Counted from the first letter of the stretch, positions 6,201 to 24,200 are shown. The stretch is DNA of 24,555 nucleotides from Perkinsus olseni (GCA_013115125.1 JABANN010000062.1:62001-86555); one strand, 5' to 3'. A program made the numbers and translations. The notes: generated by a model not told the origin, from the sequence alone.

Positions 6201-9200
6201 ACCCGTTGATACCACAATTTGTTGAACGGGCAGAATAATAGTTGAAATAGCATCGTGCTAGATCGCCGATATTATTCGAGCCAAACGTTATTAATTCCGC
6301 TGCGATGACGTAGGCGCTTGGCTCCGCCACCCGAGGGATCCCCGCGACGTCTTGAGTCCAGGCTTATCGTTCCTTACAAGCTTCCATGCCCTTTTCTGCT
6401 GCGTATTGTTGCACGATATCAAGTGTATCATCATCAACATCACTATTGACAAATCCAGTTACCACTTGTACCTACCAAAGATTCCTCCCTACCGCACTGC
6501 GAAGAATCCTGAATACCTACCACTCGGAACCACACATCTTGGCTGACCGACTCTGGACTGTACTCCAACATTTTGAAGACAACATCAACATACCAGGTCG
6601 GGTCGGGTGCGTTGACCTCAGCTAGGATTGCTATCTTTAGTATCTGAGCGCACAGAGAAGAAAAATTCACTCAGCAGAGAATGACTCTTCAAATAACATG
6701 ATTTTATGGTGGGATGTTTCAGATAATTGCCTCCCGTCAATAACATAGTATAACCGACTGGGCCGGCGCGCTCGAAGGTAGTCTATTGCCTTGGAAAGCC
6801 CTTCGCTCGAGAGTTCAAAAATTTTATAGCTAGAGGTGTCAGATAATTCATTCTCATAAAAAAGACAGTACAACAACCATCCATCACCGTGTGGCCTACT
6901 ATTCAGTATTGCCGACTGATAGCGTACACTCTGTCATCGAGAATGCCCGACTATGTGCTGCTACACTTTTGTGACTTACCAGCTCCTCGTGTATCCCCGC
7001 CGCTGCGCTCGGTTCGCTCTCTCGGAATTTATCAATACTAGACGGTGCGGGACGAGGGCCGGCTGAGAAGGTGACGAGTACTCAAGCTGCCACAGAGGGA
7101 GGGAGGGAGCCTGTACATGTGCTGGCCAGAGCTTCCAGGAGCTCATCGACGATGACCTGCCAGTTGCTCGGGTTACATATAGCATAGAGCAGATTCAACG
7201 CCTGTCTCTGGATGGAGGGATCATTTTCATGCAGCTGCCTCACGATAACGGTCTTATACCTGACCATCATCCTCAAGACCCCCGGTTCGAATCCTCCCTA
7301 TAGCACTACTTGTCGAAGAGATTGAGTTGATGCACCCAGTCCAAATGCGGTCCCTTCCCTTTGCTCGCCATAGAAGTACTCGCCGCAGTAGCCAGCCTCG
7401 CCATAGCGTCCATTCCCAAATATCGGATGTTGGCTTCCTTAGACGATATGAAACCACCTATCGACACGCCCGCCTCAGTCTCACTATCAGTCTCAGCAAC
7501 CTACTACTACTACTACCAAGAAGCTGCACACACGTGCGCCTGTTGTCCATGCTGCATTCACCACCCAGATGGATTATTAAATTGGTGGTCTCAAACAGGA
7601 CACCATTCTCGGCATTGGAGCGGTTAACTCTCTCAGCATCCGCTCTGTTGGACGCCCGACTCTTCTTTAGCCCGCCTAGATATGCATCCACTGGGATTCG
7701 AACCCGGGACCTCCCAGAGTACCACCTTTCTTGGACGATGCCTTAGGAATCGATTGCTCCTGCACTTCCATGACAGCCTTGCCCAGTACCTGCTTCCAAT
7801 TTCAAAGGAGCTTCAAGCCTGCACATGACAGAGAAAAAGATATGCTCTCACCCTCCCCAAGATCTCATTGAGACGGTAAATGATGGCATCGTCAAAGCAC
7901 GTCATCACAGGGAAGAACTGTAAGCATCGGAAAAGTTTCGCCTGACAAGACAAAAAACATTGCTACCGCGGTTCGAACCCGGGACCTTACCTGCAGCCAC
8001 GGTGCCGGCACTTTATAGTATACATAATGACTCGGGCATTCCCCCGTGACTACTGCTGATAGAGCAACGACTATTCCCGGTATCACGGGAGCCCATGAGG
8101 TGGGTGGTGTAGCGCCTGCAAAGCAACGCATACTAACTTTTCCTCACCATCCTCAACAACAGCAGTATGACCTGATTCTAGTATGCCTCCCAAGAGCCCC
8201 GCAGTGGCAGTCAGCATTCCGATATCTTTCTCATTGCTCAGGATATCACCAATCTTATGCGACCATTCCTCGGCCGGCATCAGATCCTCAGGGCCTGTCC
8301 ATCGACGAGGCATATCTTGCGCAGCCGCAAGAATCCATTCCCCTCATCCTTATTACTGTCCACTTCCCTATAGAACCGTAGCAAGCACATGCAAGCCTTC
8401 CTTTGGACATACAAAGAAGCACCATAGTTCTTGCTCAAGAGGCTGACGAATGAACGGATCTCCCCGAAATAAGCTAGCCCGTCTTAGTACCCCGAGACGT
8501 CCCTGTAGAGGTTCTCGGCGAACTCAGATCCGCCAGTATTCGCAATGCAATTGAGTGCTAAGGCCTGCACGTGCTCATTGTTACTTGCTATATCTGCTTT
8601 GCATGCGTTAACAATCAGCCGCAGCACCTAAAACCCAGCAAATTAGCCGACTGGACAAGATGTCACTTTCCAAAGCTCAAGGTCTCTGGATCGAACCCCA
8701 GTTCGAACTCACATCGTAATTTTCCTGCAATAGTAATGAGCATGCGATATAACCAGCATTCTTTTCACTGTACTTGGTGGAACTGATCGAAAGTTGAAGG
8801 CAATCCTCATCGTCACGATCCATCACCACCATCACCAACACAATCACCTGCATAGGTTGACGGCCTGTATGTGGCCAAAGTCAATATCATATCCGAGCAT
8901 GTACGCATACATGAGCTTCCACACATACTTCTTCTTGTCGTACCTCAACAAAGAAAGAATGTAGTACAGAGCGGAAGGCAGGTTTCGGGCAAGAATCGGA
9001 GGACACTCATCAACCACGAATCGATGGATGGAGCCCAGCCGACGGCTGTTGACGTAATAACAGAGAGGCCATGCAGGATCGGAGGTGAAGCGTGGTTAAT
9101 GACGCAGTACAATGCCATCAATAGTAGATGTGCTGTTAATGCCCTGGCCGTCAAGGCCAGTACCCTCACATCGGTGACTTGTGCCCATCCGACCCAGCAC

Positions 9201-21257: not shown

Positions 21258-24200
21258 TCACGCTTCCTCTTCGTACACTACCTTGGTGCGATGCCGGTTC
21301 CTGTAGACGAAGACTTGAGGCCTCAGTGCCTGCAGGGACAAGCATATCTCCTTTGCCTCGGACCAGCCCATGGTGTATTACGATGGCTATCACTGAAGGG
21401 AGGGGCAGGAGGGTGAATCGGTGGTATCCGAGGGTGGAGAAGAGGAGCTCGAACTCCTCACTGGGCGGGGTGTCGTGTCTCTCACTCATCAAGAACGAAT
21501 ACCGACTCTGATTGGATAGAACCAGGGACCGTCCGGTTATGCAGAATAGCCTATGCGCTCTCCCGTAGTACCATCGCGGCATGATCCTTCCACTGTATAC
21601 CTTCTGTCTTATCCACCGTACAAATAGTGTTGATGGGATGCACAAATCGTGACACCCCACTCATCGCACTGAAGACGTCCACGTGTATCACACACTGCCC
21701 CTCAAGATCGTCCCCCTCCCCGATCAGCTCCACCCAGAACTTCTTGTCGGAGTGAGAGGCATCTGAAGCCAAGGCGACTCGGAGGCACCAAGGCGACTCG
21801 GAGGCACCAAGGCGTTCGGCCGTCCTCACCACGCCCAGCGAGCTCAGCATCTTCCACCACGACAGGGAGAGCGGAAGATACGTTGAAACGACCCAGCAAA
21901 AGTGGATGGTCCGGATTGTCCCTCCCGACGAGGATCTGATGGCAGGGAAGCGTCAATTTCGTGCCGAGCGACGTGCGGACTCACCGCGCCATCTGAACGG
22001 TTCCGCCTGACAACCTCGGATAGCTGGTGCATCGCGTGTCCACTGGGGTAGTTGTATACCGAGGCCGTTGCTCGTGCTCCGAAGGGAACAACCTCAGGCG
22101 GACGATGATATCAAAGACAAGACCATACCCGCCAACGGACAGAACTACCACTTCTACTCACACAAGCTTCCCGCAGCAGGAGCAGCGGCACTGAGTTCAG
22201 AGGTGAGCCCACGCCCTCACGAGTGTGAGCCCATTATCCCGACCCCCCTCACTGTAACAATCGCTATCCCAATCAATCCACTTCGTAACACACAGGTTCT
22301 GAGCACCCGGTTCCTCGCCATCAACGCCATAATCTTCGCCGCTTTCGAGTTGTACGCCTCGGGACCATATCGCCAGGCTTGCGGCGATAGATACTGCAGC
22401 AACCTGAGAAATGGTAGCCGCGCTCGCCCTGATGATCGATAAGCTTCTCTCTACCGATAGGCCCCGCAAGCGGCTACAACTGCCAACGCCAGGAGGCTAG
22501 GGAAGATGAATCTGATCTCCTTGTGTGGTAGTAGGGACAGCACGCTGACCGGCGCCACGTACCATACCATTAGTAATGGTAAAAGGGGGAGCACCTGCAA
22601 CAACAAGATGAGCCCTCCTCGAGTCGGGCCTGCGATAGGCGATATAATGCTCAGCTGGGTCCAAAGAAGGGATGAGGCCCCCGTTCTGCACTCCACAACA
22701 GTGGGCACCTCAACTCCCACTATGGGCCGAGCGATGCTCTACCCACTTCTAATCTAGGATCATCGCGCTCTCTCAGAGAAATACTCTCGCTGTGCTTTGG
22801 AACGACACTATCGCTACTATTACCATCATCGTGATGGTGACACGGCAAGGGCGAAGAGCACTTCGCTAAGCACCCTCTAGATACAGCAGTGTCTCGACGA
22901 CCAGTCATGCCCAGTGAGCCACCGAGTTGCGGTATATAATGTGATACTCCCGGATGGACCCTCCAATGACACAATGGAACTTCCCTCGTAGTACAACAGC
23001 CTCCACTGCTGTGGCGACAAGCAATGGTGACCATCGATCTGATTCGTTACTGAGTTGCTATATGTTGTACAGCCCTCTAACGTCCGATGAGAATAGGAGT
23101 ACCCAACACCCTATCGGGCTGGGTTCAGCTACCGAGTCTCGGGTTTAAAGATGTGGCTTTATCCCCACAGGGACTCTATTGGGGGCAGGTTCGCCGATAT
23201 CCCAAAATGCATAACACGAGGCAGTCCCCTAGATTATCGAGCGTCGACTAAGAGGTACGGCCCCCATCCCATCAGCTACGCATTTACCTGCTTATCCGAA
23301 GACCCCACTGGAGGCCTCAAGGCAGCTACTGGTAGTAGCAACAGCAATGGTCCAAGGCCCTGAGCGAAGGCTGATGATTGTAGTCGGGCGACAGAAGGGC
23401 CGGTCACCGTACCCGTATGGTTGCGTTAGTCAAGTACCAATGCCAGGGCTGAGTACCCCAGAGGTGGGACTTGTTCTCAACAGCATTGAACCAAAACACC
23501 CATCCCTCCGGCCACATAACCATCCCTCGCTGCCACATCTGATCGAAGCTCGCTGCCATTCACCTCTACCAAGTCTCTCCTCACCAGAGTGTCCAGTGGT
23601 ATCGACAGCACTACCCCGTAGACTGCTGCCTTGAGAGCGCTTAACTTCACTACCACCACTGACGTGACCAACTGCACAGACATTAGGAGACAAAACCGAG
23701 TGCCTCGCTAACCTACCGCCCTCACACCACCATTGTGTTGCATCACTTCCCGTACAATGATCTCGATACCCAGGGCCAGTGATATCGCTAGCAGGTCGCA
23801 GCGGAACACCAACGCTGTGAAGGTCTGTGACAGGGGTGAACGGGAGGCGGGAAGAGGGAAAGGTGTGGTACCATGACTTGCATGGCCGTTAGAGTCTTCC
23901 TTTCAATGTACAATGCTAGGCTGTGCGTACCTGCCTGAGGATGCTGCTGAGGGAACATCAACTACCGCACCAACGTACTCAGTATGAGCCCGAATGAATT
24001 TGGAAGTAGCCTGGTGTAGTAGAACGAGAGATGAAAGCACCCCGTGACGCACAGTGTAATGATGACCTGAGAGAAGCTCAACAGCAGCAAGGACCACCGG
24101 AGGCTAGTACTGGTAGGGCCGGTTTGCTCGACGCTGGGCACGCATTCCTCAACCGCCGTAGTGCTGCTGCCGCTATCACAGCCATGGTCCCTCTCACCAC

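Follow-up and report, generated by a model that had tools for sequence, protein, structure and literature searches.

Where new intron sequence comes from has long been debated; the sources documented well so far are DNA transposons (introners) and, in rare cases, filler DNA. We describe here intron content of another kind in a 24,555-nt stretch of Perkinsus olseni DNA (GCA_013115125.1 JABANN010000062.1:62001-86555; hereafter the window, meaning the whole stretch analysed), in which six of the 67 annotated introns are relics of tRNA genes over about two thirds of their length and at least one of these introns lies at an ancient position. The filling of introns by tRNA-gene relics appears to be a previously unreported phenomenon, and it could be relevant to the way in which introns acquire or replace sequence. 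The relic evidence comes from this one 24.5-kb stretch and from three host genes of Perkinsus, a parasite of molluscs.

Introners, known from Micromonas, Aureococcus, dinoflagellates and Amoebophrya, and the introner-like elements of fungi resemble the relics in that short introns derive from repeated or mobile DNA in unrelated genes. However, introners occur as families in which entire introns are almost identical, and many of them carry direct and inverted repeats, whereas the Perkinsus relics share the generic tRNA core only, differ in their flanks and acceptor strands, show no visible repeats at the junctions and include one host intron that is ancient. Introns can also be gained or renewed through filler DNA at repaired double-strand breaks, as in Daphnia. 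In this process, as in the present locus, a short foreign fragment becomes intron sequence, and it could explain a one-step replacement of an intron's interior; in contrast, short direct repeats flanking the Perkinsus introns are not evident, and to our knowledge the source DNA in the known cases was not tRNA genes. Isolated, well-matched B-boxes away from any tRNA gene constitute the extra TFIIIC (ETC) sites of yeasts, and the relics also agree with this B-box consensus (exact and one-mismatch scans). ETC sites are defined by TFIIIC occupancy, whereas the relics are known here from sequence alone, and we know of no ETC site that carries remains of an acceptor strand and a discriminator base.

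Short interspersed elements (SINEs) derived from tRNAs and fragments of tRNA pseudogenes share with the relics an apparent lack of function, a B-box, the absence of an encoded CCA and the occurrence of both orientations. In a SINE, a complete tRNA-like head with its A and B boxes is followed by body and tail, and the element is longer than these entire introns, whereas the Perkinsus relics keep only the 3' 30-35 nt (except perhaps the one at 21508-21571) and neither a tail nor a target duplication was seen. A tRNA-derived SINE was rejected as the identity of the relics, given the missing 5' half in all six robust cases and the size of the whole introns (49-85 nt). Among relatives of Perkinsus, Amoebophrya is described as carrying invasive intronic elements (PMC7789003). 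For P. marinus, another report gives more than 500 copies of five tRNA gene types and transposons targeting tRNA genes, among them Dada DNA transposons of 4.7-11 kb that insert into these genes (PMC3706591). To that extent, Perkinsus genomes contain hundreds of tRNA gene copies together with tRNA-linked mobile DNA; nothing, however, ties Dada to introns of 50 nt, and no Dada sequence was seen, although none was searched for. A literature search turned up no account, for Perkinsus or any other organism, of spliceosomal introns with tRNA-derived content (supplementary files, where introner surveys may list Perkinsus, lay outside the search), in agreement with a first-pass annotation of this DNA, which knew of none. 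In a term search of a 2024 review of transposon-derived introns (PMC11282704) the word SINE is absent, and tRNA appears only in the general introduction and in one reference.

The translated exon at 7082-7297 (minus strand) had its best relatives among AP-2 alpha subunits of Perkinsus olseni and P. marinus, and the AP-2 alpha exons were, exon by exon, 95-100% identical to P. olseni protein P0001. This identity placed the window in the nuclear genome of a Perkinsus closely related to P. olseni. Gene models were built by protein-guided spliced alignment with P0001 (AP-2 alpha), P0006 (astacin) and P0007 (ALG12 mannosyltransferase), which gave the three host genes:

3208..9425, minus strand: AP-2 complex alpha subunit gene (AP2A), from spliced alignment to P0001, which carries Pfam Adaptin_N
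15197..17379, plus strand: astacin-family metalloprotease gene, from gapless alignment to P. olseni P0006, with a Pfam Astacin match
21261..24553, minus strand: ALG12-type mannosyltransferase gene (Glyco_transf_22), from spliced alignment to P. olseni P0007, with a Pfam match

AP2A contained 30 introns, all GT-AG, in a nearly gapless alignment, and hosts the relic introns 7260, 7676, 7942 and 8628 (introns are cited by their first position) as well as the weak candidates 3497 and 6472. In the astacin gene, 500 codons were matched to P0006 and 13 introns were found. The confident set of 67 introns amounted to 5637 nt (23% of the window; median 50 nt) and consisted of 59 short and 8 long introns (160-693 nt), the long ones totalling 2558 of the 5637 intronic nt. 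This set includes ten RNA-supported introns from two further genes and excludes a questionable intron of 31 nt as well as the genes located in 1-3100 and 17400-21260. Its 5' splice sites were loose (GTGAGT in 7, GTAGGT in 6, GTAAGT in 5, GTAAGG in 4, and many others).

The tRNA likeness of the relics was real and far beyond chance. The exact B-box pattern GGTTCGANNCC occurred 5 times in the window against a mean of 0.16 in 100 shuffles, none of which reached 5 (shuffle maximum 1), and 15 matches against 5.0 expected were obtained when up to one mismatch was allowed. All five exact B-boxes lay in introns, which cover 23% of the window (0.23^5 = 6e-4). The one-mismatch loci outside annotated introns (10032, 14508, 20236, 21285) displayed no further tRNA features and resembled plain coding sequence. 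The control DNA comprised 580,903 nt from 80 other eukaryotic AP2A loci of a metagenome scan, which yielded no close relative of Perkinsus; the loci were either distant (best full-length matches 43-46% identical) or transcripts; here the exact pattern was found twice. A profile was built from the intron relics alone, and its two top matches in the control DNA fell on and just beside the tRNA-Ile of locus L078, the sole tRNA called there by ARAGORN. Since the profile picks the T arm of this tRNA-Ile, the relics resemble the 3' parts of real tRNAs, beyond their likeness to one another. When the seven training introns were left out one at a time, six were recovered as the best non-training match (E-values from 2e-4 to 0.07); these are the robust relics (7260, 7676, 7942, 8628, 15438 and 15843), at a density near 1 per kb of intron. 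The register expected after the T loop, abbreviated GC-A (7-nt loop, 5-nt stem, 7-nt acceptor strand ending GC, then A), was present in four of the seven relics (binomial P 2.7e-6), namely in 7676, 15438, 15843 and, on the opposite strand, 7260. The introns concerned, with the weaker candidates, were the following:

7260..7309, gene on the minus strand, relic on the plus strand (about 7275-7306): 50-nt intron with an exact B-box at 7284-7294, acceptor strand CTATAGC, then A; E 0.023
7676..7725, minus strand, sense relic: 50-nt intron with AGGTC, T arm with 4/5 pairs, acceptor strand TGGATGC, then A; E 2.3e-4
7942..7990, minus strand, sense relic: 49-nt intron with GTA-AGGTC at the 5' splice site, a palindromic B-box, TAGCAAT-G and T6; E 0.015
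8628..8712, gene on the minus strand, relic on the plus strand (8679-8709): 85-nt intron with AGGTC, TCTGG, ATCGAAC and CCCAG, B-box with one mismatch; E 0.06
15438..15496, plus strand, sense relic: 59-nt intron with GT-AGGTC at the 5' splice site, T arm with 4/5 pairs, acceptor strand ATCCGGC, then A; E 0.071
15843..15901, plus strand, sense relic: 59-nt intron with an exact B-box T loop, stem with 2/5 pairs (hand count), acceptor strand GCAGGGC, then A; E 0.024
21508..21571, minus strand, marginal: 64-nt intron with CGGTC, CCTGG and TTCTATC, the last cut by the 3' splice site; upstream 10-mer GGGAGAGCGC
3497..3561, minus strand, weak candidate: 65-nt intron with GGGTCGAGTCC (the B-box minus one T), TCC, GCTCCGC, then A
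6472..6520, minus strand, weak candidate: 49-nt intron whose antisense strand is like the 3' end of the 7260 relic (17/22, hand count)
8443..8490, minus strand: 48-nt intron confirmed by alignment and RNA; tRNA likeness unsupported, without a profile match

Most of what the first-pass annotation had said of these sequences was borne out. The coordinates and splice sites that it named were exact in the spliced alignments (five AP2A introns including 8443-8490; 15438-15496; 15843-15901; 21508-21571), the exact register in four introns was reproduced, and its failure to find an equally good B-box in exons or intergenic DNA agreed with the distribution above. Both orientations occur, as it had noted, the relics of 7260 and 8628 being antisense to their host gene, and CCA followed the acceptor strand or discriminator base in none of the relics. 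The four clear acceptor strands all differ, so that its proposal of several parent tRNAs rather than one SINE is plausible on this sequence comparison. Seven introns had been put forward as largely filled by tRNA-like sequence, which held for the six robust cases; intron 21508-21571 was the best match outside the training set, yet with an E-value of 1.5 it remained marginal. Its 10-mer GGGAGAGCGC may be D-arm-like. A weaker eighth case had been seen in 8443-8490, which proved to be a real intron without any match to the profile. Five variable loops of the type [A/C]GGTC are indeed present, but those of 7942 and 15438 overlap the 5' splice site. GTAGGT and GTAAGG belong to the most frequent 5' splice sites of the window, and GTAGGTC or GTAAGGTC opens the relic-free introns 5870 and 10555; therefore, two of the five loops are confounded with the splice site. 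Introns 3497-3561 and 6472-6520 were rejected as robust relics, the former because it was not recovered on leave-out and had no Rfam tRNA match, the latter because the profile failed to recover it and its pair score fell inside the shuffle range.

In intron 7942-7990 the tRNA piece occupies positions 4-40 of 49, and a T6 run stands right after the acceptor strand and discriminator base, like a terminator of RNA polymerase III (Pol III). The GC-A register, the missing CCA and this T6 run point to tRNA genes, and not bare B-boxes, as the source, and an origin of the relics from tRNA genes is well supported by these sequence features. Matches elsewhere in DNA contigs were found for 7680-7713, within intron 7676-7725 (one other contig, among the matches listed), and for 15436-15473 (at least three contigs), of which the 19-mer 15440-15458 in the T arm recurred in 7-9 further ones. 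The junction of intron 15843-15901 falls at residue 148 of P0006, within the Pfam Astacin domain (residues 120-330).

The relics were clearly decayed. ARAGORN called no tRNA gene in the window, and the Rfam tRNA model gave no match at E-values up to 10, either over the whole window or over 7200-8800. With single introns as queries, 7676-7725 displayed weak matches to tRNA-like modules only, and 15438-15496 and 21508-21571 had no tRNA match. No relic showed a T stem with 5/5 pairs, the best reaching 4/5 and that of 7260 showing 2/5 (hand count from aligned rows). Fold stability of the relic introns was no better than that of shuffles (z from -1.1 to +0.9), much as in seven control introns, and the T hairpin with its 7-nt loop was not formed in the minimum-energy folds of 7942, 15438 and 15843. 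A functional tRNA gene was thus rejected (no complete cloverleaf by ARAGORN or Rfam RF00005, no 5-bp T stem). This lack of ARAGORN and Rfam tRNA calls, together with incomplete T stems and ordinary folding, indicated that the relics are decayed fragments of tRNA genes and neither genes nor structured RNAs. The decay was accompanied by an asymmetry of the ends: all six robust relics extend to the length of the tRNA 3' end, whereas their 5' ends differ, no tRNA 5' half is present in any of them and none clearly extends to the anticodon or D arm. Rfam gave no 5'-half likeness in introns 4444 and 3497.

For RNA evidence, contigs from three RNA-type runs and one DNA run were placed on 3001-23000. 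The AP2A contigs from runs X11 and X9, which belong to different studies, measured 3345 and 3343 nt, respectively, and the predicted AP2A transcript (3098 to about 9453) minus all 30 introns amounts to 3345 nt. Covered bases agreed with the removal of every intron both in the bin 7670-8336, which includes 7676 and 7942 (407-408 nt vs. 408 expected), and in the bin 8337-9003, which includes 8443 and 8628 (388-389 nt vs. 389 expected). The AP2A introns, including the tRNA-like ones, are therefore spliced; for 7260-7309 this follows from the total length of the RNA contigs only, because its bin has extra contigs. In the DNA run, GT-AG (or CT-AC) splice joints were absent among the joints listed (15 of 82). 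The relic introns of the astacin and ALG12 genes have canonical GT-AG ends, and their lengths (59, 59 and 64 nt) would cause a frameshift if they were retained; RNA depth in the astacin region was low. One RNA-type contig (run X7) was continuous over intron 6044-6377 (6014-6403), which corresponds to unspliced RNA or DNA carry-over. A trinucleotide repeat of the GTA/CAT type, located at 7458-7518 where an AP2A intron meets an exon, broke the RNA contigs and attracted unrelated ones (loose ends 7501 and 7518).

Intron positions were compared with those in genomic AP2A loci of distant eukaryotes from the metagenome scan. Four of these loci (L072, L074, L075 and L079) have an intron of 72-193 nt right after the PWLQ codons, in phase 0, with the next exon reading VK.LR.LQYFP, and Perkinsus intron 7942-7990 follows the same PWLQ in the same phase. 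Since position and phase are common to four distant loci, this comparison of sequences indicates that the position of 7942-7990 is ancient and that the tRNA piece entered, or replaced, older intron content. The first-pass annotation, which had suggested that inserted tRNA pieces created or colonised introns, had itself named ancestral positions as the condition that would refute creation but not colonisation; for this intron, creation is thereby refuted and colonisation is not. The comparators do have introns near residues 109 and 420, but displaced by 1-3 codons or in a different phase, and alignment over 394-420 is poor. They have none at residue 536 (weak candidate 6472), where their tblastn matches continue without a break. 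At residue 318 (relic 7676), the L072 model has no intron, but the protein stretch aligns to a gap at that point. Target-site duplications and terminal inverted repeats were not seen by eye at the junctions, where matches were limited to 2-6 nt and of the AG|GT type. Similarity among the relic introns was confined to the tRNA core (pair scores 12-14 vs. a shuffle maximum of 13). The PWLQ intron of L072 (about 11256) and that of L074 (about 11977) begin with GC instead of GT and look like GC-AG introns.

The explanation that we favour, and that seems to us probable with considerable reservation, is that these are ordinary GT-AG introns largely filled by the 3' portions of dead tRNA genes, which landed in introns and were kept there by the minimal intron size. 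Copies or fragments of tRNA genes, or unprocessed Pol III transcripts, would have landed in introns, most of them without the tRNA 5' part, in a lineage known for tRNA genes amplified to hundreds of copies. What remains runs from the variable loop or the T arm through the 3' acceptor strand to the discriminator base. Copies truncated at the 5' side, made from tRNA genes or from primary Pol III transcripts, would fit the asymmetry between 3' and 5' ends, the lack of CCA and the T-run. Provisionally, we suggest that minimal introns tolerate no further deletion, so that old inserts freeze and stay readable; an intron already at minimal size (median 50 nt) may explain why a relic is still recognisable over about two thirds of it. 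In at least one ancient host intron, tRNA DNA colonised or replaced the content and did not create the intron. Several observations weigh against this explanation. The six robust relics are all in short introns (6/59, against 0/8 long ones; P ~0.03 if relics were even per base), which simple accumulation of junk does not predict and which a process that creates introns would leave just as well as freezing. Moreover, three sense-strand relics (7942, 15438 and the weak candidate 3497) begin 0-3 nt from the 5' splice site, as though the fragment had set the intron boundary, although for relics of about 33 nt in introns of about 50 nt this likely results from geometry alone. A foreign piece of 37 nt in a 49-nt intron requires an insertion plus a matching deletion, or a replacement in one step. 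Finally, splicing of the astacin and ALG12 introns was deduced from alignment to predicted proteins.

Creation of introns in the manner of introners, by tRNA-derived fragments of about 45-60 nt inserted into exons and spliced out, partly with splice sites of their own (GT-AGGTC) and mostly young and Perkinsus-specific, is in our opinion unlikely. It would account for relics that make up about two thirds of typical-size introns, for their restriction to short introns and for the starts close to the 5' splice site, and it agrees with the lack of a comparator intron at residue 536 and of one in L072 at 318 (aligned to a gap), with the 30 introns of AP2A, with the blocks that other introns of the window share above shuffle level (3328/4444, 23/26 nt) and with the recurrence of the intron piece 16432-16450 in about 10 other DNA contigs. 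The ancestral position of 7942-7990 is contrary to it, as are junctions without visible target-site duplications or terminal inverted repeats, relics that have only the generic tRNA core in common while their acceptor strands differ, and the abundance of GTAGGT and GTAAGG 5' splice sites also in introns without relics; besides, the relics are decayed and therefore not recent. A still more speculative proposal, to which we give slightly less credit, would combine both processes: tRNA-derived intron elements would be spread over the Perkinsus genome, about one intron in ten being built from a tRNA gene or pre-tRNA copied without its 5' end. Such copies would renew old introns as well as seed new introns, and in some cases they would bring the 5' splice site with them (GT-AGGTC). 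If true, these would be the first tRNA-derived introners, and Pol III gene amplification would be tied to the turnover of spliceosomal introns.

A selected function of the relics, as intragenic B-box sites for TFIIIC similar to ETC sites, as T-arm hairpins aiding the splicing of minimal introns or as small RNAs, is improbable, and under the favoured explanation of dead tRNA-gene portions the relics would have none. B-box-only TFIIIC sites do exist in yeasts, and the 11-nt B-box is perfect in five relics whose stems have 1-3 mismatches; the first-pass annotation had likewise considered that a B-box better kept than the stems could reflect selection on TFIIIC binding. That argument did not hold, because an intact B-box was what singled these cases out, and no other part of tRNAs is as uniform as the T loop. 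The apparent conservation is therefore an effect of ascertainment, and B-box decay is in fact seen in the degenerate cases 21508, 8628 and 3497. The occurrence of both orientations, the lack of excess fold stability and the absence of the T hairpin from the minimum-energy folds of 7942, 15438 and 15843 speak against function as well. That the tRNA likeness was merely read into words of the GGTTCGA type, arising by chance, composition or as a splicing signal, we regard as very improbable. The Rfam tRNA model does not score the relics, the stems are imperfect, and among many windows scanned one with 5 matches could arise by luck; nevertheless, 5 matches against 0.16, their purely intronic location (6e-4) and the register (P 2.7e-6) are jointly negligible as coincidences even over 250,000 windows, and the relic profile recognises a true tRNA. 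Neither is the B-box motif a splicing signal, because only 6 of the 67 introns have it.

If the filling of introns by relics were found genome-wide, tRNA genes could be a major donor of intron sequence, and the content of a minimal intron would be replaceable wholesale while its position stays fixed. It would also advise caution against equating a repeat-filled intron with a new intron.

Sequence sharing was also seen among other introns of the window. The AP2A introns 3328-3383 and 4444-4489 have a block of 26 nt in common (23/26 identical; pair score 18.5 vs. a shuffle maximum of 13), part of which is also present in intron 5333-5385; Rfam gave no tRNA match on the 4444 intron. Another block, around AGCGCTATTTC, appeared in sense in 5870-5927 and in antisense in 3657-3702 (17/19 identical), with a looser copy in 8443-8490, and AGTTGAAATAGC recurred in the long intron at 6241. 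A reading of the shared blocks (3328/4444 and 3657/5870/8443) as tRNA 5' halves was rejected, as neither Rfam nor the profile supported it. In the astacin intron 16413-16467, the piece 16432-16465 matched another DNA contig with 0 differences over 34 nt, and the 19-mer 16432-16450 was found in about 10 further DNA contigs. ALG12 intron 21936-21984 shares CACGAAATT and its flanks with this astacin intron, a hint that repetition in this genome may extend to further intron sequences. In ALG12 intron 21763-21829 a unit of about 22 nt is duplicated in tandem (CGCCTTGGTGCCTCCGAGT twice plus a part). In the control locus L078, the tRNA-Ile called by ARAGORN is followed directly by a second T-arm-like stretch (10309-10410 in all), with an exact B-box at 10391-10401.

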